DNA of 64,000 nucleotides, taken from the NCBI GenBank assembly GCA_947084845.1, contig CAMTUE010000004.1, positions 7,217-71,216 on the forward strand, read 5' to 3'. Below are positions 30,219 to 48,808 of the stretch, in pieces. The position numbers and the translations under genes were made by a program. This DNA comes from an uncultured Bryobacteraceae bacterium. Its GTDB lineage: Bacteria > Acidobacteriota > Terriglobia > Bryobacterales > Bryobacteraceae. The notes under the pieces are model-generated. The model did not search any database and had not been told where the DNA came from. It saw nothing but the letters and a program-made list of their open reading frames with translations. The first letter of the stretch is position 1, and the number at the start of each line of letters is the position of its first letter.

Positions 30219-30275
30219 ATGAGTGATGGCACGACGATTGCACTGGATGTGGTTGAACGAAGGAGGTTCACGGCC

Positions 30276-33167
30276 ATGAAACGCCGCACATACACATTCC
30301 CGGCTCTGCTCACGCTGATGCTGGCAGTAGCCGTTCCTCCCATGACTGCCCAGACCGCGAACGACGACGCCGACGGCCCAGGCCGCGGCGTGGCCCGTTT
30401 GAGCCTGATGAACGGTGAAGTCTCGGTGCGCCGGGGGGACTCCGGCGACTGGGTCGCCGCCGCCATCAACGCGCCGCTGATGACCGAAGACCGCGTCTTC
30501 AGCGGTCCGCGTTCACGCGCCGAGGTGCAGTTTGACTACTATCACAGAGTTCGTCTGGCCGAAGATACCGAGCTCCGCCTGGCCGACATCGAGAACGGCC
30601 GGTATCTGATTCAACTGGCCCGCGGCACGGCCACCTTCAGCGCCTTGAAGGGCGGCGACGCGCAGGTCGAGATTTCGACGCCCGCGGCGGCGGTTCGTCC
30701 GGTGTCTTACGGCAGCTACCGCATCACGGTTTCCCCCGACGGCACGGCCGAGATCACCGTGCGCAGCGGCGAGGTCGAAATCTATACGCCCAGCGGGACC
30801 GAGCGGCTGAAGTCCGGCAGGACCATGCTGGTGCGCAATGGCGAGAACGGCGAGCCGCTGTTCCAGACCGTTGCCGCCATTGGCAGGGACGACTGGGACC
30901 GGTTCAACGACGCCCGCGACAAGGAGTTGCGGCGGGGTCTGGAGACCTATCAATATGTGAGCCGTGACATCTACGGCGCCGAGGATCTCCATGGTCACGG
31001 CGATTGGGTCGATGTCGCGCCTTACGGCCGCGTCTGGCAGCCGCATGTGGCGAGTGGCTGGGCGCCTTACCGCCATGGACGGTGGTCCTGGCTCGACTAC
31101 TACGGCTGGAGCTGGGTGAGCTACGACCCCTGGGGTTGGGCTCCTTACCACTATGGCCGTTGGTTCAACCACGGTGGCCGGTGGTCCTGGTATCCGGGCG
31201 CGTATGGTCATGGGCGCCACTACTGGAGCCCGGGCCTGGTGGCCTGGTTTGGCTGGGGCAGCGGCGGAATCGGCATCGGTTTTGGCGGCGGCTGGGGCCA
31301 CATGGGATGGGTGCCGCTGGCGCCTTATGATCCCTTCCACCGCTGGTGGGGCCGGGATTCCTATCGCGGCTACCGCGACGGGCGCGGGTACAACAACCTG
31401 ACCGTGGTCAACAACGTGAACATCACCAATGTTTACCGGAATGCCCGCGTGAACAACGCCATCTCCATGCACGACGGCGACTTCAGCCGCGGCATGAGAG
31501 GCCAGGCCTTCCGCGGTAACTCTGACGAACTGGGCCGCGCCAGCGTGATGCGCGGTGGCGTACCGGTGACGCCGCAGCGCGAAAGCCTGCGCTTCGCCGA
31601 CCGTGAAGCGCGTGCCATGCCTGCCGCCAGGAATGCTGGCGCCGGCAACGAGCGGTTCTACTCCAGAACTGAAGCGCGCGGCGTGGACCGCGTGCCGTTC
31701 GAGCGGCAGCGTGAAGCCATGCAGGGCGCCGAGCGCCGGACCGCGTCCGATGGGCGGCGCGGCGGCGAGGGCATCGAGACCATCCGCGGCGGCAACGTTC
31801 GCGGCGGGGTCGAGAACGCCCCTGGAAGAACCGTGGGCACCGATGGCAGCCGAAATGCGCGGACCGGCGAAGAGAACCGGGGCGGCTGGCGGACTTCCGG
31901 CGAACCGGCAACGGCTGGCGCCCGTGGCGGCGACACCAATAATGTTGGTGAAGGCCGCACGGCTGCTCCGAGAGGCGGCGAAGCCGGTGGCGCGACCACC
32001 CGCGGTGGTTGGCGGTCATTCGGCGATCCGGCTGGCGGACGGCCGGCGGGCGGCGAAGCCTCCGGCGCACGGACCAGCGGCGAACCCGGCGGCGCCAGGA
32101 CTGGCAGGAGCGCGGATGCCGTGCGGGGCGGGGAAGCCGCGAACTCCGATTCCCGGGGTGCGTGGCGCGGATTCGGCGATCCTGGGCGCGGTTCCAGGAA
32201 CGAGTCCACGGTCCGTACCGGCGATGCGACTGAAGGAGCCCGGACGAGCGGGAACGCGCGTTCGGCCGAAGCTCCGGCGAGCCGCTCCGACAGCGGGCGC
32301 GGGACGTGGTCCACTCGCGGCGGCGACACCAGCGGCCGCGAAGCCACCGGGACCGGAACGGGGCGCACCGAGAGCGGTCGCGGCAATGAATCCTGGTCCA
32401 CCCGTGGCGGGTCCGATCGCGGCAGCGCGCCGGCCCGGGTCGAATCGCCGAGAAGCGAGACTCCTCGCAGCGAGGCGCCTCGCAGCGAAACGCCCAGGGC
32501 CGAACCGGCCAGGAGCGAGCCTTCGCGGTCCGAACCGCCCGCGCGAACCGAGTCGCCGCGGGCGGGCGGGCGAGGCGGCAACGATGATATGGCGGGCGCG
32601 CGCTCCAGCGCGCCCTCTTCCACAGGCAGCGGGTTTGTCAGCGGCGGGTCGGGCCAGCGGTGGTCGACCCGCTCTTCCGATGCGGGAGAAGCCAGCAGCA
32701 GCCGGAGCTTCGGCTCGGGATCGGCGGGCATGAGCGAGTCCAGGTCCGAGAGCCGGGGCAACTGGTCGACTGGCGGCGGCGACATCGGCAGCCGGTCGTC
32801 GATTGGAAGGAGCGAATCCTACGGCGGCGGCAATTCGGGTATGGGTTCGTCCCGTTCGATGCCGTCGACCCGCGGCATGGATAGCAGCCCCAGTTATGGC
32901 GGTTCGAGCCGGAGTTCCGGTGGAGGCGGCGGGATGAGCGCGCCGGCTTCCAGTTCCCGTAGCGGAGGCGACTCCGGTGGCGGAGGCGGTGGAATGCGCA
33001 GCAGCGGCGGCGGATTCGGCGGAGGCGGCGGGATGAGCAGCGGTGGCGGAAGCGGTGGAGGCAGCGGTGGAGGAATGAGAAGCAGCGGCGGCGGCGGGAC
33101 GAGCAGTGGCGGACGCAGCAGCGGTGGAGGCGGTGGCCGCAGTGGTGGAGGCGGCGGGCGGCGGTAG
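30276..33167 (+). CDS. secreted FecR-like domain protein with Trp/Tyr/Gly-rich repeat region and long G/S/R-rich disordered tail
   Basis: AGGAGG 30261-30266 then ATG 30276. Signal MKRRTYTFPALLTLMLAVAVPPMTA. VARLSLMNGEVSVRRGD..RAEVQF..VRLAEDTELRLADI is FecR-like. GDWVDVAPYGRVWQPHVASGWAPYRHGRWSWLDYYGWSWVSYDPWGWAPYHYGRW resembles DUF6600 (from memory). About the last 480 aa are low complexity. Confidence 0.65.
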   Translation: MKRRTYTFPALLTLMLAVAVPPMTAQTANDDADGPGRGVARLSLMNGEVSVRRGDSGDWVAAAINAPLMTEDRVFSGPRSRAEVQFDYYHRVRLAEDTELRLADIENGRYLIQLARGTATFSALKGGDAQVEISTPAAAVRPVSYGSYRITVSPDGTAEITVRSGEVEIYTPSGTERLKSGRTMLVRNGENGEPLFQTVAAIGRDDWDRFNDARDKELRRGLETYQYVSRDIYGAEDLHGHGDWVDVAPYGRVWQPHVASGWAPYRHGRWSWLDYYGWSWVSYDPWGWAPYHYGRWFNHGGRWSWYPGAYGHGRHYWSPGLVAWFGWGSGGIGIGFGGGWGHMGWVPLAPYDPFHRWWGRDSYRGYRDGRGYNNLTVVNNVNITNVYRNARVNNAISMHDGDFSRGMRGQAFRGNSDELGRASVMRGGVPVTPQRESLRFADREARAMPAARNAGAGNERFYSRTEARGVDRVPFERQREAMQGAERRTASDGRRGGEGIETIRGGNVRGGVENAPGRTVGTDGSRNARTGEENRGGWRTSGEPATAGARGGDTNNVGEGRTAAPRGGEAGGATTRGGWRSFGDPAGGRPAGGEASGARTSGEPGGARTGRSADAVRGGEAANSDSRGAWRGFGDPGRGSRNESTVRTGDATEGARTSGNARSAEAPASRSDSGRGTWSTRGGDTSGREATGTGTGRTESGRGNESWSTRGGSDRGSAPARVESPRSETPRSEAPRSETPRAEPARSEPSRSEPPARTESPRAGGRGGNDDMAGARSSAPSSTGSGFVSGGSGQRWSTRSSDAGEASSSRSFGSGSAGMSESRSESRGNWSTGGGDIGSRSSIGRSESYGGGNSGMGSSRSMPSTRGMDSSPSYGGSSRSSGGGGGMSAPASSSRSGGDSGGGGGGMRSSGGGFGGGGGMSSGGGSGGGSGGGMRSSGGGGTSSGGRSSGGGGGRSGGGGGRR

Positions 33168-37938: not shown

Positions 37939-38157
37939 ATGGAGCGCACTGCTTCCCTTTCGACCGCGATCGATGCCGAGTTAAGAGAGGCGTTGACGCG
38001 ATACTGCAAGCGGCGCGGCCTCAAGATCCGCCACGTGGTAGAGCAGGGCCTTCTGGAACAGCTTGAAGACGAGATCGACCGCCAGGCGTGGCTTGAGCGC
38101 CGCGATGAGCCGAGGGTTGCCCTTGAAGCCGTTCTCTCCGCCCGCCGCGGCTCGTAG
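37939..38157 (+). CDS. type II antitoxin, ribbon-helix-helix-like
   Basis: 72-aa ORF 3 nt upstream of a RelE/ParE toxin. Its STAIDAELREALTRYCKRRGLKIRHVVEQGL segment fits a strand-helix-helix pattern. Confidence 0.7.
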   Translation: MERTASLSTAIDAELREALTRYCKRRGLKIRHVVEQGLLEQLEDEIDRQAWLERRDEPRVALEAVLSARRGS

Positions 38158-38160
38158 GCG

Positions 38161-38436
38161 ATGGCTTCCGTCTACCGCGTCGAGTTCACACGCAGCGCGG
38201 GGAAGGAGTTTCTTGGGCTTCGCCGGGAGGTCCAGGAGAAGGTTCTTGAGTCGATTGAGGTCATCAGGCGAAATCCGGCGACGACTCTGGTCCAAATCAG
38301 GAAGCTGTCCGGCCTGGAGTCCGTGTATCGTTTCCGGGTGGGGGACTTTCGCGTGGTTTATGAGTTGCGCGCGCGCCAGTTGGTCATCCTGGTCATCAAG
38401 ATCGGCGACAGGCGGGAGGTGTACCGTGCGTTCTGA
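38161..38436 (+). CDS. RelE/ParE-family type II toxin
   Basis: YRVEFTRSAGKEF..L....KVLESIEVIRRNP.....KLSGLESVYRFRVGDFRVVYELRARQLVILVIKIGDRREVYR matches the RelE/ParE pattern. Confidence 0.85.
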   Translation: MASVYRVEFTRSAGKEFLGLRREVQEKVLESIEVIRRNPATTLVQIRKLSGLESVYRFRVGDFRVVYELRARQLVILVIKIGDRREVYRAF

Positions 38437-38517: not shown

Positions 38518-39552
38518 ATGCCCTTGACCACTCGACGTGTATTTTGCGCCATCGCGCCGGCGATTCTGGGAGCGACGGATAAGTCCGGAATGAAGCGGCC
38601 TGTGACGGGCAGCGGCAGTCACTTGTATGAGGTGATCCACGACTGGGGCGAGTTGCCGCGGACGATCAGCTATGGCAACACGCATGGGGTTTGCGTGGAT
38701 GGGCAAGGCCAGGTTTACGTCCACCATACCGTCCATGCGTCGAGCGCGAGCGAGGACACGATGGTGGTGTTCGACGGCAAGGGCAGGTTCGTGCGGAGTT
38801 GGGGGCGTGAGTTCAAGGGCGGCGCCCACGGGTTGCATATCCGCAAAGAGGGGCGGGAAGAGTTCCTCTATCTGTGCGATACGGTGCGCGCCGTGGTCGT
38901 AAAGACGACGCTGAAGGGCGAGGTGGTTTTCACGCTCGGCTATCCGAAGGAGTCGCCGGAGTACCCGCTGGATGGGGAGGGCAAGCCGGCAGGGAAGTAC
39001 AGCCCGACAAATCTGGCGGTCGCGCCGAACGGGGACATCTATGTCGCCGACGGGTATGGATCGAGCTACATCAATCAGTACAGTTCGAAGGGGAACTTCA
39101 TCCGCACGTTCGGCGGCAAGGGCAAAGAGGCGGGCCAACTGAACCAGCCCCATGGGATCGCGATCGACGAGCGGGGTCGGGAGCCGGCGGTCTTGGTGGC
39201 GGACCGGGCGAACCGGCGATTCCAGTACTTTTCCCTTGACGGCAAGCATCTGAGGTTCGCGGCCGAGGGGGGCGTGAAACTGCCGTGCCACTTCGACCAG
39301 CGGGGCGAGTTGTTGCTGGCGCCGGACCTGGAAGCGCGGGTGACGCTGCTCGACGGGAAGGACCAGGTGCTGGCGCAGTTGGGCGAAGACGATACGAACA
39401 CCTGGGGGCAGATGAGGAAGAAGGCGCGCGGGGAGTTTGTTCCGGGCAAGTTCATATGCCCGCACTCGGCCTGCTTTGACCGGGACGGGAACATATTTGT
39501 TGTGGAGTGGGTGGAAGTGGGGCGCGTGACGAAGCTGAGCAGGATATCCTAA
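38518..39552 (+). CDS. NHL-repeat six-bladed beta-propeller protein
   Basis: GAGGGAG then ATG 38518. Tat/signal-like MPLTTRRVFCAIAPAILGA. Repeats such as PTNLAVAPNGDIYVADGYG and LNQPHGIAIDERG. Confidence 0.75.
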   Translation: MPLTTRRVFCAIAPAILGATDKSGMKRPVTGSGSHLYEVIHDWGELPRTISYGNTHGVCVDGQGQVYVHHTVHASSASEDTMVVFDGKGRFVRSWGREFKGGAHGLHIRKEGREEFLYLCDTVRAVVVKTTLKGEVVFTLGYPKESPEYPLDGEGKPAGKYSPTNLAVAPNGDIYVADGYGSSYINQYSSKGNFIRTFGGKGKEAGQLNQPHGIAIDERGREPAVLVADRANRRFQYFSLDGKHLRFAAEGGVKLPCHFDQRGELLLAPDLEARVTLLDGKDQVLAQLGEDDTNTWGQMRKKARGEFVPGKFICPHSACFDRDGNIFVVEWVEVGRVTKLSRIS

Positions 39553-39557
39553 TTAGG

Positions 39558-40037
39558 ATGTCCGAGATCACAGTCCGCGTGGCCACGCCGGCCGATGCCG
39601 AGTTTATCGTCCGGGGCAATGCCTCGATGGCGCTGGAGACCGAGGGGTTGTCGCTTGACCTGGACCGGTTGCGCGATGGGGTCCACGCGCTGTTCGAGAA
39701 ACCGGAGCGCGGGGTATATTATGTTGCCGAAGTGGGGGGCAAGCGGGCTGGGCAGATGATGATCACCTACGAGTGGTCGGACTGGCGGAACGGCGATTTC
39801 TGGTGGATTCAGAGTGTGAATGTGGAGAAGGAGTTTCGGGGGCGGGGTGTCTTCACAGCGTTGTACAGATTCGTGGAGGGGCTTGCACAAACGAACTCCG
39901 GGGTGGGTTTGAGGCTGTATGTGGAGCACGAGAATGGGCGGGCGCGGGCGACGTACGAAAAGGTAGGGATGGTGAAGACGGTGTACGAGATGTTCGAGGT
40001 CGATTTTGTGCTCTCGCGACCGTCAACCGTGCTGTAA
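39558..40037 (+). CDS. GNAT-family N-acetyltransferase
   Basis: MSEITVRVATPADAEFI... and IQSVNVEKEFRGRGVFTALY, the acetyl-CoA binding Q/RxxGxG/A motif. Confidence 0.8.
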   Translation: MSEITVRVATPADAEFIVRGNASMALETEGLSLDLDRLRDGVHALFEKPERGVYYVAEVGGKRAGQMMITYEWSDWRNGDFWWIQSVNVEKEFRGRGVFTALYRFVEGLAQTNSGVGLRLYVEHENGRARATYEKVGMVKTVYEMFEVDFVLSRPSTVL

Positions 40038-40055
40038 TTTTCAACAATCGCCGTT

Positions 40056-40069
40056 GTGTTTTGCAACAC
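40056..40069 (+). promoter_or_regulatory. inverted repeat GTGTT-ttgc-AACAC, candidate enhancer (UAS)
   Basis: 5+5 palindrome about 155 bp upstream of the -24/-12 element. A second 7-bp inverted repeat, TCGCAAC (40157-40163) / GTTGCGA (40193-40199), lies closer. Confidence 0.35.
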
Positions 40070-40170
40070 GCCTTAACATCTTTCTTTTCATCTGCTTAGC
40101 CGCTTTTTGTGGAATCTTACAGCGCTTCATGTAGACATTCACAACACATGGCATTTTCGCAACTGACCCG

Positions 40171-40183
40171 CAAGTCATTGATT
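40171..40183 (-). promoter_or_regulatory. IHF-like site
   Basis: The minus strand reads AATCAATGACTTG, which fits WATCAANNNNTTR. It lies between the inverted repeats and the sigma-54 promoter. Confidence 0.4.
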
Positions 40184-40211
40184 TATTGATAGGTTGCGAG
40201 GATTTCGAGTT

Positions 40212-40227
40212 TGGCCACCAGCTTGCA
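40212..40227 (+). promoter_or_regulatory. sigma-54 (-24/-12) promoter
   Basis: TGGCCAccagcTTGCA versus consensus TGGCAC-N5-TTGCW. GG (40213-14) and GC (40225-26) have the canonical 12-nt offset. It is 49 nt upstream of ATG 40276, and a GAFTGA activator is encoded in the same cluster. Confidence 0.65.
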
Positions 40228-40275
40228 TATAGAAAGGTGCAGGCAGAAGAGCCTGAAGAAAGTCGAGATCCTCAC

Positions 40276-40938
40276 ATGACAGTCCTATTCGTAATTCTAA
40301 CCTTCACGGTCTTTATTATTGCTGACCTCGTGATGAACAAGGGCAAGGCTCCCATGGCCGCCCATGAACCGGTGCTTGAACCCGCCATTGAAGACGCCGA
40401 AGTTGCTGGTGGATACGCAATCCCTGGCCATCTCCGCTATCACCCCGGCCACATGTGGCTCGCCCGAGAGCGCAAGAACGTGAATCGGGTTGGCGTGGAT
40501 TCGTTTGCCGCTGCGTTCACCGCCGGAGTCGAGAAGATCGACCTGCCGAAGGCCGGCCAGTGGGTCCGTCAGGGCCAGAAGGTCGTCACGCTGCATCGCA
40601 ACGGTGAAAAAGTTGAGATCGTGTCGCCGGTGGAAGGCGAAGTTGTTGAAGTGAATGCCCGGATCGCCGAAGACGCTTCCCTGCTCCGCCAGGACCCTTA
40701 TGGCGAAGGCTGGTTGATGACCGTGTTTGCTCCCGACGACGAGAGCCCGGCCCGCAACCTGCTGCCCACAAACCTGGTCGCCAACTGGATGCGTGAAGCG
40801 GCCGACCGCTTGTTCGCGATGCAGCCCCAGCTTGCCGGCGCCACGGCCGCGGACGGCGGCGAACCGATTCAGGAACCTGCACTTGCTCTCGACGCCAAGA
40901 CCTGGAGCCAGGCTGGTCGCGAGTTTTTCCTCGATTGA
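40276..40938 (+). CDS. membrane-anchored GcvH-like (glycine cleavage H fold) protein
   Basis: TM helix MTVLFVILTFTVFIIADLVM. Then LRYHPGHMWLA..VGVDSFAA..G....IDLPKAGQWVRQGQKVVTLHRNGEKVEIVSPVEGEVVEVN..I..D.SLLRQDPYGEGWLM aligns by eye to GcvH. The ORF-track start 40186 lies upstream of the promoter. Confidence 0.75.
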   Translation: MTVLFVILTFTVFIIADLVMNKGKAPMAAHEPVLEPAIEDAEVAGGYAIPGHLRYHPGHMWLARERKNVNRVGVDSFAAAFTAGVEKIDLPKAGQWVRQGQKVVTLHRNGEKVEIVSPVEGEVVEVNARIAEDASLLRQDPYGEGWLMTVFAPDDESPARNLLPTNLVANWMREAADRLFAMQPQLAGATAADGGEPIQEPALALDAKTWSQAGREFFLD

Positions 40939-41019
40939 TGAAAATATCATCACTTCAGACCTTTTAGTCTGGTAAGAATCCACAGTACGGGCTAGACTGA
41001 AGACTAGCCCGGAGGTCAA

Positions 41020-41760
41020 ATGGCGCGAGCGATCCTGTATGACAGCGTACTTTGCGTAGGCTGCCGACAATGTGAAGAAACCTGTTCTGAGCGTTGGAAA
41101 CTGCCGTACAACGAGAAGATAGCGGCCGAGGAGAAGGTCTCGGCGCACAAGCTCACCGCGGTTCGCACCCATGGTGAGCGTTTCTCGAGGAAGCTCTGCA
41201 TGCATTGCATCGATCCGGCCTGTGTTTCGGTTTGTCCGGTAGCGGCGCTACAGAAGACCGAAGCCGGGCCGGTTGTTTATTTGGAGGAGCGGTGCATGGG
41301 TTGCCGATACTGCATGACGGCGTGCCCGTTCCAGGTTCCCTCCTATACATGGAGTGAACGGCTGGCTCCGAAGGTGGCCAAGTGCGACATGTGCTCGGAC
41401 CAACTGAAGGAGCCGACGCGGTGCAGTTCGATCTGCCCGACGGAGTCGACGATCACGGGTGACCGTGACGAGTTGATCGAAAAGGCGAAGGCGAGGATCA
41501 AGGAGAATCCCAAGGATTACTATCCCGCCATCTACGGGATTGAGGAGGCGGGCGGGACATCTGTGCTGATCCTGTCGGCGGTTCCATTCGATCAGATCGG
41601 CTACAACATGAACGTGCCGAAGGAAGCGTTGCCGCTGACGACGTGGGCGGCGCTGCAGCATATCCCGAACATTGTCGTGTCCGGATCGGTCCTGATGGGC
41701 GGCATCTACTGGCTGAACAACCGCAAGGAAGAGGTTGCGCGGCGGGAGGGCGGGAAGTGA
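41020..41760 (+). CDS. four-cluster [4Fe-4S] ferredoxin (HybA/DmsB/NrfC-like) with C-terminal TM helix and no Tat signal
   Basis: GGAGG then ATG 41020. Cys groups CVGCRQCEETC, CMHCIDPACVSVCP, CMGCRYCMTACP and CDMCSDQ..CSSICP. N-terminus MARAILYD has no RR motif. C-terminal IPNIVVSGSVLMGGIYWL. Confidence 0.85.
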   Translation: MARAILYDSVLCVGCRQCEETCSERWKLPYNEKIAAEEKVSAHKLTAVRTHGERFSRKLCMHCIDPACVSVCPVAALQKTEAGPVVYLEERCMGCRYCMTACPFQVPSYTWSERLAPKVAKCDMCSDQLKEPTRCSSICPTESTITGDRDELIEKAKARIKENPKDYYPAIYGIEEAGGTSVLILSAVPFDQIGYNMNVPKEALPLTTWAALQHIPNIVVSGSVLMGGIYWLNNRKEEVARREGGK

Positions 41761-42941
41761 TGAAACTGGCGATGCCGAAAATCACCTTCTGGCGTATGAT
41801 CTTCGCGGGTCTGATGCTTGCAGCTCTGTGGGCGACCTATGTACGCGTGACCGGCGGACTGGCGGCCTCGACGAACCTGAGTGACGAGTTTCCATGGGGC
41901 ATTTGGATTGGTTTTGACATCCTGTGCGGTGTGGGGTTGGCCGCGGGCGGGTTCACGCTGGCGGCGATCGTCCACATCTTCAATCTGAAGGAGTACAAAC
42001 CCGTTGTCCGGCCGGCGATTCTGACGGCGTTCCTGGGCTATGTTCTGGTCGTTATCGCGCTGATGTTCGACCTTGGCCGCCCGTGGCGTATCTGGCATCC
42101 ATTGATCATGTGGAATCCGCGCTCGGTGATGTTTGAGGTGGGCTGGTGCGTGACGCTGTACACGACGGTTCTTTTCCTGGAGTTCTTCCCGCTGGTTCTT
42201 GAGCGATTCAAGTTGAAAAGGGCGATTTCGGTGCTCAAGGCGATGATGCCGCCGATCATAATTCTTGGCGTGGTTCTGTCGACGCTGCACCAGAGTTCGC
42301 TGGGCAGTCTGTATCTGATCATGAAGGGCAAGTTGCATCCGCTGTGGTACAGCCCGCTGCTGCCGCTGCTGTTCTATATTTCGGCTATCGCGGTCGGTTT
42401 GGCCATGACGATCTTCGAGTCGTGGCACAGTGCGAGGGCGTTCGGACGGCAGCTCGAGTGGCCTCTGATTCAGAAACTGAGCCGGATGCTGGCGGTTGTG
42501 CTGGCGCTGTATGTGGCGATGCGGCTGTTTGACTTGACCCAACGGCAGGCCTGGCACTATCTGGAACAGCCGGGGTGGGAGAGCCGGCTGTTTATGCTGG
42601 AGATGATTCTGACGATTGTGCCGATGCTGCTGCTGTTCAGGGAGAAGACGAGGCAGAATCCAACGGGACTCTACATCACGGTGGTGATGTTCCTGCTCGG
42701 CTTTGTCACGAACCGGTTGAACATCAGCATCACCGGCATGGAAAGGTCCTCGGGCGTGAGCTACATTCCGAAGTGGACCGAAGTGGCGGTGACGTTCGCC
42801 ATCATCGCGGGCGCGTTTGCCATCTTCCGTTTTGCGGCGAAGCATCTGCCCGTCTTTGAAGCCGCGGAGCATCCGGCGCCGGCCGGCGAATCGGGCGGGC
42901 GCAGATCGGATCTGGTGAGCGCGGGCGCATCCGGGGATTAA
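41760..42941 (+). CDS. NrfD/HybB-like polytopic membrane (quinone-interacting) subunit
   Basis: ATG 41760 shares one nt with the upstream TGA. About 10 TM helices. FPWGIWIGFDILCGVGLAAGGF and LMFDLGRPWRIWHPLIMWNPRSVMFEV resemble NrfD/PsrC/HybB. Confidence 0.8.
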   Translation: MKLAMPKITFWRMIFAGLMLAALWATYVRVTGGLAASTNLSDEFPWGIWIGFDILCGVGLAAGGFTLAAIVHIFNLKEYKPVVRPAILTAFLGYVLVVIALMFDLGRPWRIWHPLIMWNPRSVMFEVGWCVTLYTTVLFLEFFPLVLERFKLKRAISVLKAMMPPIIILGVVLSTLHQSSLGSLYLIMKGKLHPLWYSPLLPLLFYISAIAVGLAMTIFESWHSARAFGRQLEWPLIQKLSRMLAVVLALYVAMRLFDLTQRQAWHYLEQPGWESRLFMLEMILTIVPMLLLFREKTRQNPTGLYITVVMFLLGFVTNRLNISITGMERSSGVSYIPKWTEVAVTFAIIAGAFAIFRFAAKHLPVFEAAEHPAPAGESGGRRSDLVSAGASGD

Positions 42942-42946
42942 GCCCA

Positions 42947-44608
42947 ATGGCGGACGAGACCGCATCGACGAGCCTGCCGCGATTCGGTATTGCGGCCAAA
43001 CTTGCGGTGTGCCTGGTGTCGGCCGTTCTGGCGGGATTCGGTCTTTTCAGCTATTTCCAGCAGAAGTTGGAGCAGACCCATCTCGAGACCCTGGTCGGCC
43101 TGAGCGCGGAACAGGTGGCTGACGTAGTGCATTCGTCGGCATACCGGGCGATGCTGCATAACGACCGCGACGCCCTCTACACGCTCATTCGCGATTTCGG
43201 GCGAGAACCGGGCATCCGGCGTGTGCGCATAGTCAACGAAGAAGGGCTGATCCAGCACTCGACGCACCTGGGCGAGGTGGGCGAGGTTGTGGACAAGAGC
43301 GCGGAGGCGTGCGATGCCTGCCACGCTTCGACGCAGCCGCTGACGAGGCTGGACAGAAAGGACAGGGCGCGCATTTTCACCGACGACGAGGGGCGCCGCA
43401 ACCTGGCGGTGATCCGTCCGATTGAGAACGCTCCAGAGTGCAGCAACGCGGCCTGCCATGCGCATCCGGCATCGCGCCGGATTCTGGGCGTCATCGACGT
43501 CCATCTGGCGCTCCACGGCGTAGACGCTCAACTAGCCGAATTCCGCATGCAGATGATCTCGTTCACGGCCGCCGCGGCGCTGCTGGCCTGCGTGTTGAGC
43601 GTTCTATTCGTGTTCAATGTTGTGCACCGTCCGGTGAGGCTGCTGTTGCATGCGATCGGGGAATTGAAACGCGGCGATCTGACCCATCGCGTGAACGTGG
43701 GAACGCGCGACGAGTTTGGCGTGCTGGCCAGCGAATTCGATTCGATGGCTCATGCGATCGACAAGGCGCAGATCGAGTTGCGCAGGTGGAACGACACGCT
43801 TGAGGCACGGGTGAGCCAGAAGTCCGCGGAACTTGAGAAGGCGCATAAAGGCCTTGTGGTAAGCGAGAAGATGGCGTCGCTTGGAAGGCTTGCGGCGACG
43901 GTGGCTCACGAAGTCAACAACCCGCTATTCGGCATGCTCACCTATGCGCGGCTTTGCCTGAAGGACCTGGACAAGCTCGAAGGCGACGAGTCGCGCAAGG
44001 AACGGGTGAAGGAACATCTGAGGATCATCGAACGGGAGAGCCGGCGCTGCGGGGACCTGATGAAGACGCTGCTGGCGTTTTCCCGGCAGAAGCCCCCGGA
44101 GAGGGCGCAGACGGACGTGAACACCGTGGTCGAGCGCGCGTGCTCGCTCCTGCTGCATAAATTAACGTTGTCCCGCATCGAACTGATCAAGGAGCTTGAT
44201 CCTGATCTGCCTGCGATCCTGGCGGACACGGCGCAGATCCAACAGGTGATTGTGGTGTTGCTGGCCAACGCATCGGAGGCGGTCACGGAAGGCGGATCGG
44301 TGCGGATCCGGACGGGTTGCGCGAGCGATGGCAAGGGCGTTGTGATCACTGTCACCGATAGCGGACCGGGCGTACCGGCCGGCTTGCGGGAGACGATCTT
44401 CGAGCCCTTCTTCACGACAAAGGAAGAGCAGCACGGCACAGGCCTGGGCTTGGCAGTGGCCCGCACCATCGTGGACCATCACGGCGGTTCGCTGACTCTG
44501 AATCCCGATTCGAGCCACGGGGCGGAGTTCGTTGTCCGGCTCCCAATGGAAGCGCCAGAAGAACTCGCGGCGTCGGCAGCAGACTTTAGCGGAGGAACCA
44601 AAGAATGA
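42947..44608 (+). CDS. sensor histidine kinase (TM - periplasmic Cys..CysHis domain - TM - HAMP - HisKA - HATPase)
   Basis: Two TM helices flank a sensor region of about 165 aa that contains CDACH (43310-43324) and CSNAACH (43439-43459). HAMP follows. H-box is ATVAHEVNNPL. DSGPGV and GTGLGLAV are ATP-lid motifs. Confidence 0.85.
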   Translation: MADETASTSLPRFGIAAKLAVCLVSAVLAGFGLFSYFQQKLEQTHLETLVGLSAEQVADVVHSSAYRAMLHNDRDALYTLIRDFGREPGIRRVRIVNEEGLIQHSTHLGEVGEVVDKSAEACDACHASTQPLTRLDRKDRARIFTDDEGRRNLAVIRPIENAPECSNAACHAHPASRRILGVIDVHLALHGVDAQLAEFRMQMISFTAAAALLACVLSVLFVFNVVHRPVRLLLHAIGELKRGDLTHRVNVGTRDEFGVLASEFDSMAHAIDKAQIELRRWNDTLEARVSQKSAELEKAHKGLVVSEKMASLGRLAATVAHEVNNPLFGMLTYARLCLKDLDKLEGDESRKERVKEHLRIIERESRRCGDLMKTLLAFSRQKPPERAQTDVNTVVERACSLLLHKLTLSRIELIKELDPDLPAILADTAQIQQVIVVLLANASEAVTEGGSVRIRTGCASDGKGVVITVTDSGPGVPAGLRETIFEPFFTTKEEQHGTGLGLAVARTIVDHHGGSLTLNPDSSHGAEFVVRLPMEAPEELAASAADFSGGTKE

Positions 44609-45954
44609 CACGCGGTCGAATTCTGATCGTCGACGACGATCCCGTTGTTCGCGATTCACTGGGCAAATGGTTTGAAAGCGAGGAGTTCCAGGTCGAGGTC
44701 TGTCCCGGCGCGCATGTGGCGCTCGAGAGGCTGTCGCACGACCGTTTCGACCTGGCGTTGCTTGATATAAAAATGCCGGGCGTGGACGGTATTGAATTGC
44801 AGGCCCGCTTGCACGACATTGCTCCGGAAATGCCGGTGGTGATCATGACTGGCTTCGCGTCGGTTGAGACTGCGGTGAAGGCGCTAAAGAACGGCGCCTA
44901 TGACTACATCACGAAGCCGTTCGACCCGGACGAACTGGTGCACCTGGTATCGAACGCGATCGCGCACCGCCGCGCCGAGGGTGAAGTGGTCAGGCTCAAG
45001 GAGAACCTGCAACAGATCTTTCCGGAGACATCGCTGATCGGGCAGAGTCCGCAAATGAAACGGGTGATCGAACTCGTCGAAACGGTTGCGCCGACAGACG
45101 CGACCGTGCTGATCACAGGTGAGAGCGGCACGGGCAAAGAGGTTGTCGCGCACGCCATCCACGCGGCCAGCCCGCGGCGTTACAACCCGATGGTGGTCAT
45201 CCATTGCGGCGCACTCACCGAGACGCTGCTCGAGAGCGAGCTGTTCGGCCACGAGAAAGGCGCGTTCACCGGCGCCCAGGCGCGAAAGAAGGGCAAGTTC
45301 GAGATGGCCGAGGGCGGGACCGTTTTTCTGGACGAGATCAGCGACATCAGCCTGCGGACACAGACGGATCTGTTGCGCGTGCTTCAAGAGAAAGAGATCG
45401 TCCGCGTGGGCGATTCACATGCAGTGAAAGTGGATTTTCGGGCCGTAGCGGCGACAAATAAACGGCTGGAAAAGCAAGTCGAAGATGGCTTGTTCCGCCC
45501 TGACTTGTATTATCGCTTAAATGTTTTTACTATTGACATTCCTCCTCTGCGCGCCCGAAGAGAAGACATTCCACTGCTGGCCACTCACTTTATCGGAAAG
45601 CTTACCTCACAGATGAACAGGCAGCCGCAGCGGTTATCGGCGGCAGCGATGGAAGCGCTGATGGACTATGCGTGGCCCGGCAACGTCAGGGAGTTGGAGA
45701 ATTCAATCGAGCGGGCGCTTTTGATCAGCCGGACGCCCGAGCTTGAGCCGGATGATTTCCCGTTTCAGACGCTGCGCGCCGCACAGCTCGGCGGACGGCG
45801 ATTGGAGGATATCGAGCGGGCCCATATCGAGCGTGTTCTGACTGAAACCACATGGAATTTGTCGCACGCCGCGCGAGTGTTGGCCATTGACCGCACAACG
45901 CTCTATAACAAGATCCGCCGCTACGAACTGGAAGACCCAAGGCGTATCAGGTAG
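44605..45954 (+). CDS. sigma-54-dependent response regulator (NtrC family)
   Basis: ATGA overlap with the kinase. Receiver [26 protein letters not shown] Walker [10 protein letters not shown] (GAFTGA loop). Fis-type [26 protein letters not shown]. Confidence 0.92.
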
Positions 45955-45957
45955 CGG

Positions 45958-46503
45958 TTGAAAAACGTGGCGGCGAAGATCCACATCCTGCCGGTTTCGC
46001 CTCCGGTCCCGGATTTGAACCTCCTTGACCAGCTCTCCGCCGGCCTGGCAGGTGCGCTGAAGGTCTCCTGCCGCGTGGTGACCGAGGAGTTCGACGCGTC
46101 ATTCGCCTTCGACACGTACAGGGGGCAGACTTACTCGACGGCTGTGCTGGCGCGGCTTGCTGAAGCGCCGATCGGAGACGGCGAGATCATGCTGGGAGTC
46201 TGCGAAGCGGACCTGTACGTGCCCGTGCTGACGTTCGTCTTTGGCGAGGCGCAGTATCCTGGGCGTGCGGCGATTATCTCGGCGGCGCGCCTTCACGAAG
46301 AGTTCTACGGGCTGCCGCCCGACCCGGCGAAACTGAATGAACGGCTGCTGAAAGAGGCGATTCACGAGATCGGGCACACGCGAGGATTGGGCCATTGCGA
46401 CGACTGGAACTGCGTGATGGTGTCGTCGCATCGCGTGGAGCGTCTGGACCTTAAATCGGCTCAATACTGCGCGCGTTGCAAAAGAAAGCTCAGCGCTTTC
46501 TAA
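45958..46503 (+). CDS. archaemetzincin-like (M54) zinc peptidase
   Basis: HEIGHTRGLGHCDDWNCVM then 16 aa then CARC, close to the archaemetzincin signature HExxHxxGx3Cx4CxM..CxxC. TTG 45958 or GTG 45966 start, 3 nt after the regulator stop. Confidence 0.75.
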   Translation: MKNVAAKIHILPVSPPVPDLNLLDQLSAGLAGALKVSCRVVTEEFDASFAFDTYRGQTYSTAVLARLAEAPIGDGEIMLGVCEADLYVPVLTFVFGEAQYPGRAAIISAARLHEEFYGLPPDPAKLNERLLKEAIHEIGHTRGLGHCDDWNCVMVSSHRVERLDLKSAQYCARCKRKLSAF

Positions 46504-48808
46504 ATCTGGCAGTGGGGGGCTTTTTGCCGGTATTCCGCGCCCAGGGTCCGGCAAGCGAAAACATCAGGCGCTTCTCGACGGCATCGACGTGGTCAAGCCG
46601 AACCCGCACCGGGTCGCCGATGGCGATTTCGCGGCGGGAGCGTTCACCGGCGATTTTGCGGGTGTTTTCATGATAATTCCAGTGCTCGCCAGGCAGACCG
46701 TCGATCGGGACGAGCCCTTCCACAAAGAGGTCGTTCAATTCGACGAAGAAGCCGAAGCGCGTGGTTGAGATGACCAGGGCGTCGAACTCTTCGCCGACGC
46801 GGTCCGCCATGAACTTGACGCGTTTCCATTCGAGCAGTTCGCGCTCGGCTTCGGCGGCGCGGCGTTCGGTGTCGGAACACATGCGGGCGAGGCCGGGGAG
46901 ATCCGAGACCTCGGGAGGTTGGCGATCGAGCAAAGAACCGAGGAGACGATGGACAATGAGGTCGGGGTAGCGGCGGATGGGCGAAGTGAAGTGGGTGTAG
47001 CTATCAGCGGCCAGCGCGAAGTGGCCGACGTTCTCGGCGGCATAGCGGGCCTGCTTGAGCGAACGCAACATGAGGAAACTCAGGATGCGTTCCTCGGGGC
47101 GGCCTTCGAGCTTCGCGACCAGTTTTTGATACATGCGCGAAGAGACCTTCATGCGTTCGTCGGCGCGCACGATATCGCGCCTGAGTTTGCGTCCGTCCGA
47201 GGTTCGAGTGACGGCGGGGAAGCGCTTGACGGGCACTGCGCCGAAGCCGAGCGAATAGCCGAAGCGGGCGGCGAGGTCTTCGAAATCCATCACCTTTTGC
47301 GGGTCGGGAGACTCGTGGATGCGGAAGATGGACTCGGTCAGAGAGGCTTCCAGATGGGCGCTGACGGTCTCGTTCGCGGCCAGCATGAACTCTTCGATGA
47401 TGCGGTTCGCGATGTTGCGCGGCGCGCGGTCGATGGAGGTCATCAGGCCGTTTTCGTCGAAGACGATGAAGGGTTCAGGCAGGTCGAAATCGATTGAGCC
47501 GCGCTTCTGGCGCTTGCGTTGGAGGATTTCAGCCAGGTCCTTCATCATCAGGAAACGATCGACCAGCGGCGCGTATTTCGTGCATCGCTCCGGGTCGCCT
47601 TCGAGGATCAGATGGACATCGGTGTAGGTCATCCGCTCGGCGCTGCGGATGACGCCGCGGCAGAATTCCTTTTTGACGACCTGGCCCTGGTGGTCGATCT
47701 CAAGCAGGGCCGACATGACGAGGCGGTCCACAAGCGGCTTGAGGGAGCAGATGCCGGTGGAGAGTTCGAGCGGCAGCATGGGCACGGCGCGGTCTGGAAA
47801 GTAGACGCTCGTGCCGCGGATGAGGGCTTCGTTGTCGATGGCCGAGCCGGGCTTGACGTAGTGGCTGACGTCGGCGATGTGGACGTGAAGGAGATAGCGG
47901 CCTTCGGCGGAGCGGTCCACCCAAACGGCGTCGTCGAAATCCCGCGCCGTCTCGCCGTCGATCGTGACGCAGTCCATGTGGCGGAAGTCGCGGCGGCGGG
48001 CGATCTCGGCGGCGGCGATCGACTCGTCGAAGGCTCGCGCCTCATCGAGTGCTTCGGCGGAGAAGCGATTCGGCAGGTGATGCTTGCGGATCGTGATTTC
48101 GACATCGACGCCGAAGTCGTCGGGATGGCCGAGGATTTCGATGACACGGCCGGCAGCGTCTTCGCCGCGCTCGGGGAAGTCGAGAAGTTCAACGTTAACG
48201 ATCTGGCCGTCGAGGTCCTCGATCGAATTCACCTTCGGAATCGGCGCGCCAATGCGATCGGGGTTTGACGCCGTGCCGGGGAACTCCATTCCATCAGGGA
48301 TGAAGATCGCCTGCTGGATGCGGCTTTCCTGAGGCACGACGTAATTCGTCTTGCGGCCGATCTTGAACTCGCCGACGACAGTGGGGTGGGCTCGCCTGAT
48401 GATGCGGACGAGGTCGCCTTCGGCCTTACCGTCGGGCAGGACGCGGGTGACATGGGCGAGGACGCGGTCTCCGTGCATCGCGCTCATCGACGGGTCTGGC
48501 GGAATGAAGATGTCGCCTTTGACGCCGCGTACGGGGCTGTCCGGGACGACGAAACCGTAGCCGTCGCGGTGCATTGCAAGGCGGCCGATGGCGTATTCCT
48601 GAGTTCGCGACGGGAGCACGAACTGGCCGCGCATTTCGATCACGGCGCCACGCCGGACGAGGAGATCGAGGGCGTCCTCGAAGCGCTGGCGGTCCTCGCC
48701 GCGGACACGCAGTTCCTTCATGAGATGGCGGGCCGTGGCCCGGCCCTTCGGCTGAAGGTCCAAGTGGTCGAGAATCGACTTTTCCAAACCCGGTTCAGGC
48801 TTGCTCAC
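46490..48808 (-). CDS. rnr: ribonuclease R
   Basis: RNB motifs DFDDAVWV, HIADVSHYV and SVYFPDRAVPMLP. C-terminal S1 domain (GFFVEL) and a basic tail. GTG start 48808. Confidence 0.9.
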   Translation of the reverse strand: MSKPEPGLEKSILDHLDLQPKGRATARHLMKELRVRGEDRQRFEDALDLLVRRGAVIEMRGQFVLPSRTQEYAIGRLAMHRDGYGFVVPDSPVRGVKGDIFIPPDPSMSAMHGDRVLAHVTRVLPDGKAEGDLVRIIRRAHPTVVGEFKIGRKTNYVVPQESRIQQAIFIPDGMEFPGTASNPDRIGAPIPKVNSIEDLDGQIVNVELLDFPERGEDAAGRVIEILGHPDDFGVDVEITIRKHHLPNRFSAEALDEARAFDESIAAAEIARRRDFRHMDCVTIDGETARDFDDAVWVDRSAEGRYLLHVHIADVSHYVKPGSAIDNEALIRGTSVYFPDRAVPMLPLELSTGICSLKPLVDRLVMSALLEIDHQGQVVKKEFCRGVIRSAERMTYTDVHLILEGDPERCTKYAPLVDRFLMMKDLAEILQRKRQKRGSIDFDLPEPFIVFDENGLMTSIDRAPRNIANRIIEEFMLAANETVSAHLEASLTESIFRIHESPDPQKVMDFEDLAARFGYSLGFGAVPVKRFPAVTRTSDGRKLRRDIVRADERMKVSSRMYQKLVAKLEGRPEERILSFLMLRSLKQARYAAENVGHFALAADSYTHFTSPIRRYPDLIVHRLLGSLLDRQPPEVSDLPGLARMCSDTERRAAEAERELLEWKRVKFMADRVGEEFDALVISTTRFGFFVELNDLFVEGLVPIDGLPGEHWNYHENTRKIAGERSRREIAIGDPVRVRLDHVDAVEKRLMFSLAGPWARNTGKKPPTARFRKR

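Follow-up and report, generated by a model that had tools for sequence, protein, structure and literature searches.

A conserved sigma-54 operon of Bryobacterales joins a predicted NrfD/iron-sulfur quinone module to a membrane-anchored GcvH-fold protein, a haem-motif sensor kinase and an archaemetzincin

We describe a six-gene operon on a 64,000-nt stretch of DNA from an uncultured Bryobacteraceae bacterium (GenBank assembly GCA_947084845.1, contig CAMTUE010000004.1, positions 7,217 to 71,216 of the forward strand; this whole stretch is hereafter called the window and supplies the coordinates used below). The operon (40276-46503) is an NrfD/iron-sulfur (Fe-S) module, with a predicted quinone role, under sigma-54 two-component control, and in both respects it is of a known kind. 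What is unusual about it is an obligatory membrane protein with a GcvH fold that cannot be lipoylated, an archaemetzincin that is conserved along with the other genes, and an Fe-S subunit that has neither a signal peptide nor a linked catalytic partner. Soils and peat commonly harbor bacteria of the order Bryobacterales (Candidatus Solibacter, Bryobacter, Paludibaculum), and little is known of how their quinone pool connects with electron transfer in the periplasm or outside the cell.

All six genes lie on the forward strand. They encode a 220-residue membrane-anchored GcvH-fold protein (g1, 40276-40938), a 246-residue tail-anchored ferredoxin-like subunit of the HybA/HmcB type with motifs for four [4Fe-4S] clusters (g2, 41020-41760), a 393-residue NrfD-family membrane subunit of the HybB/HmcC type with 10 transmembrane (TM) helices (g3, 41760-42941), a 553-residue sensor histidine kinase (g4, 42947-44608), a 449-residue NtrC-family sigma-54 activator (g5, 44605-45954) and a 181-residue archaemetzincin of family Peptidase_M54 (g6, 45958-46503). 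The table of open reading frames (ORFs) and the junction sequences, which we read directly, give spacings of 81, -1, 5, -4 and 3 nt: g2 and g3 meet in TGATG, g3 and g4 are separated as TAA-5nt-ATG, g4 and g5 share the 4 nt ATGA, and g5 and g6 meet as TAG-CGG-TTG. These values agree exactly with those of a first-pass annotation of this DNA, which had also counted six genes; the count holds, and the sixth gene, which that annotation left undiscussed, proved to encode the archaemetzincin and to be conserved like the other five. We placed the g1 start at ATG 40276 and rejected a TTG at 40186, because all orthologues begin MTV... and because the promoter falls within the longer ORF.

The unit is conserved well beyond this genome. 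A scan of species-representative genomes yielded 231 g1 loci, 80 of which were retrieved; nearly all of these are from Bryobacterales, and they include cultured Paludibaculum fermentans (locus L020), in which the cluster is hence directly testable. Synteny was assessed by tblastn of the window proteins against the 80 loci, with gene order judged only in loci long enough to show all six genes, and recurring neighbors were identified by unsupervised clustering of all ORFs from the 80 loci. Domain identities throughout come from Pfam and NCBIfam profile searches with the family cut-offs. The order g1-g2-g3-kinase-activator-archaemetzincin was present in essentially every sufficiently long locus, corresponding to ~60-70 Bryobacterales genomes, and was kept at identities down to 52% for g1, 55% for g2 and 44% for the kinase. 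The first-pass annotation had named co-occurrence outside this genome as a test of the cluster, and the retention of six-gene order amid changing flanks answers it in the affirmative: the neighboring GNAT and rnr genes are kept in the nearest relatives only. Apart from spurious overlapping frames, only six families recur around g1 (in 61-80 loci); the next real family was found in just 17 loci, indicating that there is no conserved seventh gene. The same six genes also occur in unrelated contigs at 43% and 29% g1 identity.

A sigma-54 promoter of the -24/-12 type, TGGCCACCAGCTTGC, lies ahead of the operon at 40212-40226 on the forward strand, 50 nt upstream of the g1 ATG. Its GG (40213-14) and GC (40225-26) have the canonical spacing, and transcription is predicted to start at ~40237. 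The loose -24/-12 pattern alone is weak, with 22 matches in the window against 13.7 expected, and the call is convincing because the element is conserved. TGG-N9-TGC was present within 130 nt upstream of g1 in 76 of the 80 loci, as compared to a mean of 1.5 and a maximum of 6 in shuffled sequences, and the loci share the consensus tTGGC(c/a)-N6-(g)TGC(c/a), most often 45-70 nt upstream of the ATG. In a simple scan of 39900-46700, no sigma-70-like site was found on the forward strand. Further upstream is a candidate enhancer, or upstream activating sequence (40031-40145), composed of three palindromes of the GTTG-N7-CAAC type: one with a single mismatch at 40031-40045, a perfect copy, GTTGTGTTTTGCAAC, at 40053-40067, and another with one mismatch at 40131-40145. 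Just 2 perfect copies of GTTG-N7-CAAC exist in the whole 64-kb window, and an exact copy is found upstream of g1 in 44 of 80 loci, usually 140-250 nt from the ATG, where chance would give ~0.3 loci (a rough estimate, not computed). This cluster of palindromes has the layout expected of an NtrC-type enhancer, to which g5 would be the protein that binds. Conservation of the -24/-12 element upholds the well-spaced promoter that had been proposed from the window alone.

Similar elements accompany g1 paralogues that stand alone. Several Bryobacterales genomes contain a second, lone copy of g1 away from the cluster, as at L040 (8001-8675), L050 (8001-8672) and L079 (8001-8672). In each of these three, a -24/-12 element stands at -59 or -60; L040 and L050 have in addition a GT(T/C)G-N7-CGAC palindrome at about -220. 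From these upstream sequences, the lone paralogues probably belong to the same regulon, which would then be wider than the operon. The L040 copy is located among unrelated genes (sulfatase, GH67, RraA-like).

The kinase and activator have the features required of a dedicated sigma-54 two-component system. g4 is composed of a first TM helix, a periplasmic domain of ~165 residues (approximately residues 34-200), a second TM helix, and HAMP, HisKA and HATPase domains. The periplasmic domain contains two haem-c motifs, CDACH (nt 43310-43324, residue 122) and CSNAACH (nt 43439-43459, residue 165). Of 72 homologous sensor domains, 64 keep both a CxxCH and a Cx4CH motif, and in another four a second CxxCH stands in place of Cx4CH; swapping of the CxxCH and Cx4CH motif types fits haem attachment. 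The motifs are retained in relatives at 30-34% identity (L085, L088 and L092), and other distant clusters have Cache-type sensors in place of the haem-motif domain. A sequence search with the sensor domain found no relative in the PDB. We infer that g4 is a c-type haem sensor kinase with its two haem motifs between two TM helices. A lysine at the cytoplasmic end of its first TM helix, K18, is kept in 66 of 71 homologues. g5 matches Pfam Response_reg (1e-32), Sigma54_activat (2e-70) and HTH_8 (8e-13), and the GAFTGA motif is present in its AAA+ domain (nt 45259-45276, residues 219-224). The heme-motif kinase and the GAFTGA activator of the first-pass annotation are thus borne out, the one by conservation of the motifs and the other by its REC-AAA+-HTH_8 architecture.

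The pair encoded by g2 and g3 resembles the electron-transfer subunits of known respiratory complexes. g2 has 16 cysteines in four ferredoxin-type motifs, a Fer4_11 domain and a C-terminal TM helix, and all 16 cysteines are kept in 76 homologues. In NCBIfam it comes closest to HmcB (230 bits, cut-off 420), followed by HybA (168 bits, cut-off 263), with each alignment beginning past the twin-arginine translocation (Tat) signal of the matched protein. By sequence, the closest solved structure is FdnH (1kqf_B, 5e-21). g3, whose start overlaps the g2 stop by 1 nt, matches Pfam NrfD (4e-29, 103 bits against a cut-off of 25.8), and its best NCBIfam matches are HmcC (338 bits, cut-off 550) and HybB (311 bits, cut-off 450). 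It has 10 hydrophobic segments and no cofactor motifs, and a PDB sequence search with g3 found nothing. Over its full length the protein aligns with HybB of E. coli as well as with NrfD subunits that have Tat-signal partners, and it retains HybB residues R89, Y99, E148 and H184. When these residues were replaced in E. coli, H2 oxidation significantly decreased and a protonophore relieved the effect, according to the account of Lubek et al. 2019 given in PMC8076601. g3 is therefore best described as an NrfD-family subunit, predicted to interact with quinone, with an adjacent four-cluster partner. The four-cluster ferredoxin and the NrfD/HybB-like subunit recognized in the initial reading both stand and can be refined to a pair of the HybA/HybB-HmcB/HmcC type.

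Several signals bear on the side of the membrane that this pair faces. In 70 of 71 loci, no in-frame twin-arginine motif was reachable upstream of g2. The tail of g2 after its TM helix is always rich in lysine and arginine (NRKEEVARxEG...), like that of a relative with a Tat signal, and under the positive-inside rule this basic tail places the Fe-S domain in the periplasm. The lysine and arginine content of the g3 loops is biased in the same sense (13.1 inside versus 8.0 outside, n=71) and has the same sign as in HybB (14:5) and in the distant relatives L087 (13:6) and L092 (19:8). In the latter two, the Fe-S protein has a Tat signal (SRRNFLK in L087 and KRRDFLK in L092); c3/c7-type cytochromes are encoded alongside, and L092 also has a molybdenum (Mo)-enzyme with a Tat signal. 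Neither the 64-kb window nor the immediate surroundings of the cluster in the 80 loci encode a cytochrome, hydrogenase, Mo-enzyme or Tat redox protein, which extends the earlier remark that no catalytic or cytochrome subunit is encoded at the locus. The lack of a signal peptide together with the periplasmic topology signals implies a partner elsewhere, and 'orphan' may therefore be true of the locus only. For the locus the term is robust; on the sequence evidence, either the partner is encoded elsewhere or, less likely, the module faces the cytoplasm. Most likely, g2 is carried across the membrane by a signal-bearing partner whose gene lies in another part of the genome, a route known as Tat hitch-hiking.

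g1 shares the fold of GcvH and lacks its lipoyl lysine. It matches Pfam GCV_H (2e-19) and scores below every NCBIfam GcvH cut-off (TIGR00527, 67.9 versus 115.85 bits; NF002270, 74.2 versus 117). An AF2 model built from 57 sequences (pLDDT 85, pTM 0.74) starts with a TM helix (residues 2-21) and continues through a disordered linker and a beta-sandwich (~42-151) to two C-terminal helices. A Foldseek comparison of the model with GcvH structures gave E ~1e-11, a TM-score of 0.85 and a root-mean-square deviation of 2.1 A, in agreement with the TM-anchored GcvH-fold protein of the first-pass annotation. The C-terminal extension had no Foldseek match; it is 55 residues long, helical and family-specific, with an invariant DGG (residues 193-195) in a low-confidence loop. 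The lipoyl lysine of E. coli GcvH aligns without gaps with G110, a position that is G, N, S or K across the family, and g1 has no cysteine. Since the lysine is not conserved and there is no cysteine, g1 is unable to be a lipoyl or thiol carrier; judged from its residues, it is not a classical swinging-arm carrier and not itself a redox carrier. Family-specific features are the second histidine in (Y/F)HxxHxW, W171, the DGG, and T9 and D17 in the TM helix, the last two being kept even at 29-34% identity. Lysine and arginine residues directly follow the TM helix, and g1 is accordingly predicted to be N-out, C-in, with its fold in the cytoplasm. This topology is supported by a fusion protein (P0202) in which a single chain runs from a signal peptide through four CxxCH motifs and an HmcD-like TM helix to a GcvH-like domain.

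The g1 family is large. A word-indexed search found >1,600 homologues, the named ones being from Bryobacteraceae, Candidatus Solibacter and other Acidobacteria; the closest is 95% identical and comes from an uncultured Candidatus Solibacter metagenome-assembled genome (MAG). An exhaustive search of 50%-identity representatives found 1,377 proteins at E<=1e-10, a threshold that should exclude canonical GcvH, which would score near 1e-9 at that database size; the family thus comprises about a thousand 50%-identity clusters in public data. The NCBIfam entry 'GcvH_rel_desulf' was set aside as a different family, all members tested scoring 32-47 bits against its cut-off of 150. A fusion of three GcvH-like domains with an FAD oxidase and an HdrD-like domain (P0234) was not used as evidence, as it has neither the HxxHxW nor the DGG motif. 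Soluble GcvH-like members with an N-terminal Cys-rich motif, such as CVWMVAGVVSYKLCDRNRDCESCP, are found in L087 (9713-10432), L092 (8266-8985) and L091 (9001-10830). The motif, which may be a metal or Fe-S site, is absent from the g1 of the window.

The last gene of the operon encodes an archaemetzincin by both family score and motifs, and protease activity is predicted. g6 scores 153 bits with the NCBIfam archmetzin profile NF033823 (cut-off 145) and matches Pfam M54 (4e-25). Its zinc-binding motif HExxHxxGxxH is intact as HEIGHTRGLGH (nt 46363-46395, residues 136-146), and four cysteines (C147, C152, C171 and C174) are suited to a second zinc site. The gene lies downstream of the activator in 61 loci, and in all distant contexts examined it is found beside the pair of histidine kinase and response regulator genes.

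Eight contexts outside Bryobacterales had enough flanking sequence for comparison: an unclassified contig (43% identity), a Latescibacterota MAG, a Myxococcota MAG and five metagenomic contigs. In all eight, one or more GcvH-like genes stand beside a kinase, a sigma-54 activator and an archaemetzincin gene. An NrfD gene is present in 6 of 8, and a Fer4_11 partner is seen in 5 of those; in the NrfD context without a visible Fer4_11 gene (L093), the contig begins just upstream of NrfD. The GcvH-like gene directly follows the NrfD gene in L087, L092, a JGI contig and L093. In L087 and L092, the N-terminus of the GcvH-like protein is HmcD-like, scoring 31.3 and 26.7 bits with NCBIfam NF045712 (cut-off 34); the precomputed annotation of these N-termini is PF28260 DVU_0533, and the link to HmcD rests on NF045712 instead. 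One paralogue is a fusion of a REC domain to a GcvH-like domain. On these gene neighborhoods, the invariant core across phyla is the GcvH-like protein, kinase, activator and archaemetzincin, with the HmcBC/HybAB-type pair frequent and dispensable.

Some of the variant loci carry additional genes. Inserts of 1.2-1.8 kb between g1 and g2, present in L026, L027 and L043, were considered as a missing subunit. The insert in L027 is instead a tandem g1 duplicate, an identification that applies to this locus only. Locus L027 (3576-7107 on the reverse strand and 9193-10002) has, with the tandem duplicate, a second kinase/activator/archaemetzincin set upstream in divergent orientation, and the motifs of the second kinase are CRSCH and CASADCH. 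In L093 (240-7437), the NrfD gene is accompanied by three GcvH-like genes (one of them REC-fused) and by genes for MTHFR, a small Fer4_8 protein, a c3-type cytochrome and DUF5981, and the M54, sigma-54 activator and kinase genes converge on this cluster. The link to MTHFR may hint at a cytoplasmic redox partner. In one distant lineage (L088, 15820-17284; L089, 11351-12815), the six-gene cluster is followed by genes for a DsbD_N-domain protein and an AhpC/Redoxin-family protein, which are periplasmic thiol-redox functions.

Taken together, these observations lead us to lean toward a composite model in which a self-regulated sigma-54 operon would encode a periplasm-facing quinone module with g1 as its cytoplasmic adaptor or effector. 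The regulatory half taken alone, that is, the haem kinase, the activator, the palindromes and the sigma-54 promoter, is highly probable. The two-haem c-type domain of g4 would read the periplasmic redox or ligand state, and g4 would phosphorylate g5, which would bind the GTTG-N7-CAAC sites at 40031-40145 and open the -24/-12 promoter at 40212-40226. Transcription of all six genes, the regulators included, would result in positive autoregulation. g2 would reach the periplasm on a Tat carrier encoded elsewhere, and its four [4Fe-4S] clusters would form the electron path between a redox partner in the periplasm and the quinone site in g3, with proton-coupled turnover through the retained HybB residues. 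g1 would dock on the membrane module from the cytoplasm, either as an adaptor or as an effector of the regulon, and the archaemetzincin would probably act on g1 or on a regulator. The fusion of an HmcD-like helix to the GcvH-like domain in relatives is consistent with docking of g1 on the module.

A number of observations weigh against this model. L085 and L091 have GcvH-like, kinase, activator and archaemetzincin genes and neither an Fe-S nor an NrfD gene. The lone g1 paralogues have their own sigma-54 promoter, and g1 need not, then, be a subunit of g2/g3. The g1 TM helix has no match to HmcD, the charge bias of the g3 loops is weaker than in HybB, and no partner with a Tat signal was found in the window or beside the cluster in the 80 loci; it would be unusual for a dedicated partner to lie apart from the cluster every time. 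Some of these points argue for a different reading, in which g1 and the archaemetzincin are signaling machinery rather than redox subunits and the HybA/HybB-type pair is one of several cargos. g1 might in that case be a third component or feedback partner that touches the kinase via its TM helix, with the protease turning g1 over. The adjacency of GcvH-like, histidine kinase, sigma-54 response regulator and M54 genes in 8 of 8 contexts outside Bryobacterales, 2 of them without Fe-S/NrfD, favors such a role, as do the existence of the REC-GcvH-like fusion, the sigma-54 promoters retained by the lone paralogues, the presence of T9 and D17 in g1 of the NrfD-less cluster L085, and the conservation of K18 in the first TM helix of the kinase. 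However, basic residues often occur at TM boundaries and are not specific for contact. Furthermore, the HmcD-like helix fusion after the NrfD gene and the tetrahaem fusion P0202 argue for physical membership in a complex, and the g1-g2-g3 order is fixed in Bryobacterales. We consider the signaling role possible but doubtful as a replacement for the composite model, with which it is not fully exclusive. The earlier proposal of a GcvH-fold protein as third redox subunit thus stands in part: the fixed gene order supports it, but the invariant partners of g1 are the kinase, activator and archaemetzincin, and it is one of two live readings.

The module could alternatively face the cytoplasm, like SoeABC, with g2 inside, g3 functionally inverted and g1 in the place of the catalytic subunit, where it would bring an electron donor or acceptor of the cytoplasm to the Fe-S chain. 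The lack of a reachable Tat motif for g2 in 70 of 71 loci fits this orientation, as does the absence of a gene for a periplasmic partner in or near the cluster, across the window and the 80 loci. The cytoplasmic location of the g1 fold would put g1 and g2 on the same side, cytochrome c genes accompany only those relatives whose Fe-S protein has a Tat signal, and SoeABC is a precedent for an inverted NrfD complex (PMC8076601). The weak charge bias of g3 points in the same direction, but the bias is not reversed, and g3 aligns along its whole length with HybB and with Tat-partnered NrfD subunits. Moreover, the basic tail of g2 would sit in the periplasm if the Fe-S domain were cytoplasmic, and g1 has no cofactor-bearing residue. 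Inversion of the module is therefore rather unlikely. That g1 is an ordinary glycine-cleavage H paralogue and its neighborhood a chance juxtaposition has next to no probability. The Pfam GCV_H match is in keeping with that identity, as is automatic annotation, which calls g1 homologues 'glycine cleavage system protein H', but the paralogue reading is refuted by the variable position that has no lysine at the lipoylation site, by scores under all NCBIfam GcvH cut-offs, by the TM anchor with its C-terminal extension, and by synteny with the other five genes in >60 genomes with no gcvT/gcvP nearby.

If the composite model is true, the operon encodes a redox-regulated respiratory module with a catalytic partner yet to find, g1 is a new type of accessory subunit for NrfD-family complexes, and both bacterial archaemetzincins and non-lipoylatable GcvH-like proteins gain a functional context for the first time. 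The analysis also corrects a systematic annotation error, the naming of this family as 'glycine cleavage system protein H'. A more tentative proposal, which we put forward as speculation, is that non-lipoylated membrane GcvH-fold proteins could be an unrecognised class of cytoplasmic subunit of HmcC/HybB-type NrfD complexes, taking the place held elsewhere by HmcEF or DsrMK. They would be part of a signal-and-respiration module, together with a dedicated archaemetzincin and a two-component system of the sigma-54 type whose periplasmic sensor is a haem or Cache domain. The module would be widespread in Acidobacteriota, Latescibacterota, Myxococcota and Planctomycetota, and it would act from the cytoplasm to couple or gate quinone-linked electron transfer in the periplasm. 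Were this the case, bacterial archaemetzincins and lysine-less GcvH-like proteins would have their first physiological role.

The spacer and flanks of the operon have features of their own. The 81-nt spacer between g1 and g2 (40939-41019, forward strand) is predicted to form three hairpins, with a minimum free energy of -33.2 kcal/mol (z = -2.6) when the window sequence is folded. The last of these is a GC-rich stem without a U-tract that abuts the g2 ribosome-binding site. The hairpins could set different expression levels for g1 and g2/g3 or be a site of mRNA processing. In a simple scan, the operon contained two weak terminator-like sites only, fewer than in shuffles. Domain searches agree with the earlier assignment of the flanks as a GNAT gene upstream (39507-40037) and rnr downstream, the latter encoding RNase R with RNB, CSD2 and S1 domains in convergent orientation (46490-48808, reverse strand). 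The last 14 nt of g6 (46490-46503) are shared with rnr, and there is consequently no space for a terminator of the operon's own ahead of rnr.

Elsewhere in the window, a near-consensus sigma-54 promoter, TGGCACGACGATTGC, is located at 30227-30241, at the start of an ORF (30219-33167) with FecR and DUF6600 domains. It falls just ahead of an internal methionine that is followed by a signal-peptide-like segment, and from its sequence it may mark a second sigma-54 target in the window. At 37939-38436, a small gene pair resembles a type II toxin-antitoxin module, with a 72-residue protein that weakly matches DUF6290 followed by a 91-residue ParE-family toxin (Pfam 1e-9).

Comparison with known systems was consistent with the first-pass annotation, which could assign a GcvH-fold protein in third position to no described complex. 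The catalogue of NrfD complexes in PMC8076601 (Nrf, Psr, ACIII, Dms, Hyd-2, Arr, Ttr, Qrc, Sre, Nhc, DsrMKJOP, Mcc, Fqo and Soe) has no GcvH-fold subunit, and an arrangement of a GcvH-type protein with NrfD, or of an archaemetzincin with sigma-54 regulation, was not found in the open-access literature to which our search was limited, so that a subscription journal may hold a description. Unlike in GcvH itself, the common fold is combined in g1 with a TM helix, an extra HxxH motif and the C-terminal DGG extension, and gcvT/gcvP are not among the recurring neighbors of g1 in the 80 loci. The LbpA lipoate-binding proteins of the Hdr-like systems of sulfur oxidisers have the GcvH-type fold as well.

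As a sigma-54 activator that induces a quinone-linked inner-membrane module upon redox change, BccR of Geobacter sulfurreducens, which acts on cbcBA, offers a functional analogy only. The cbcBA cargo is a b/c-type cytochrome pair, unlike the Fe-S/NrfD pair of the operon. A homology link to cbcBA/BccR was dropped, GSU0597 and GSU3489 being described as hypothetical proteins only. With P0283, the most Geobacter-like relative, as query, no named Geobacter protein was among the homologues returned, and we found no evidence of a GcvH-like or M54 gene near cbcBA, whose neighbors are annotated only as hypothetical. A paper on the Desulfovibrio sigma-54 regulome leaves GcvH, NrfD and peptidase unmentioned.

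The absence of signal peptides from peripheral subunits is common to the operon and SoeABC. SoeC is expected to be inverted, with 8 TM helices and in a complex with a Mo-subunit (PMC8076601), whereas g3 has 10 TM helices and a HybB-like charge bias. A signal-less, tail-anchored four-cluster protein like g2 is found in formate dehydrogenase-N, whose FdnH is exported by Tat hitch-hiking, and in a system in which such an Fe-S protein and a HybB-like subunit accompany a periplasmic FeFe-hydrogenase with a Tat signal, for which hitch-hiking has been proposed (bioRxiv 10.1101/2023.11.02.564894). In both of these systems the carrier is encoded next door; by contrast, g2 has no linked carrier at any locus. 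HybA and HybB of E. coli hydrogenase-2 share the architecture of Fe-S and membrane subunits with g2 and g3, but HybA has its own Tat signal, and no hydrogenase subunit or maturation genes are present in the window or beside the cluster in the 80 loci.

The Desulfovibrio Hmc complex and its counterpart Nhc are, with HybAB, the nearest matches. HmcB-HmcC-HmcD and NhcBCD likewise combine a tail-anchored four-cluster protein, a 10-TM NrfD subunit and a small single-TM subunit, and HmcB and HmcC are the best NCBIfam matches to g2 and g3, both well under the equivalog cut-offs. Among the Hmc-like relatives, a GcvH-like protein with an HmcD-like start follows the NrfD gene, and c3/c7-type cytochromes adjoin. 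The operon differs in having no multihaem cytochrome (HmcA/NhcA), cytochrome b (HmcE) or HdrD-like protein (HmcF), and no CxxCH-rich or other redox ORF that might supply one was found in the window or recurred in the 80 loci. It also differs in the lack of a Tat signal on g2, in its GcvH-fold domain and archaemetzincin, which Hmc and Nhc do not have, and in its regulation by a sigma-54 two-component system in place of Rrf1/Rrf2. Because HmcA, HmcE, HmcF and the Tat signal are missing and the scores lie below the cut-offs, the operon is not an Hmc system, and because it has no hydrogenase it is not a hydrogenase-2. Judged by profile scores and gene content, the pair is closest to HmcBCD/Nhc and HybAB while being a member of neither.

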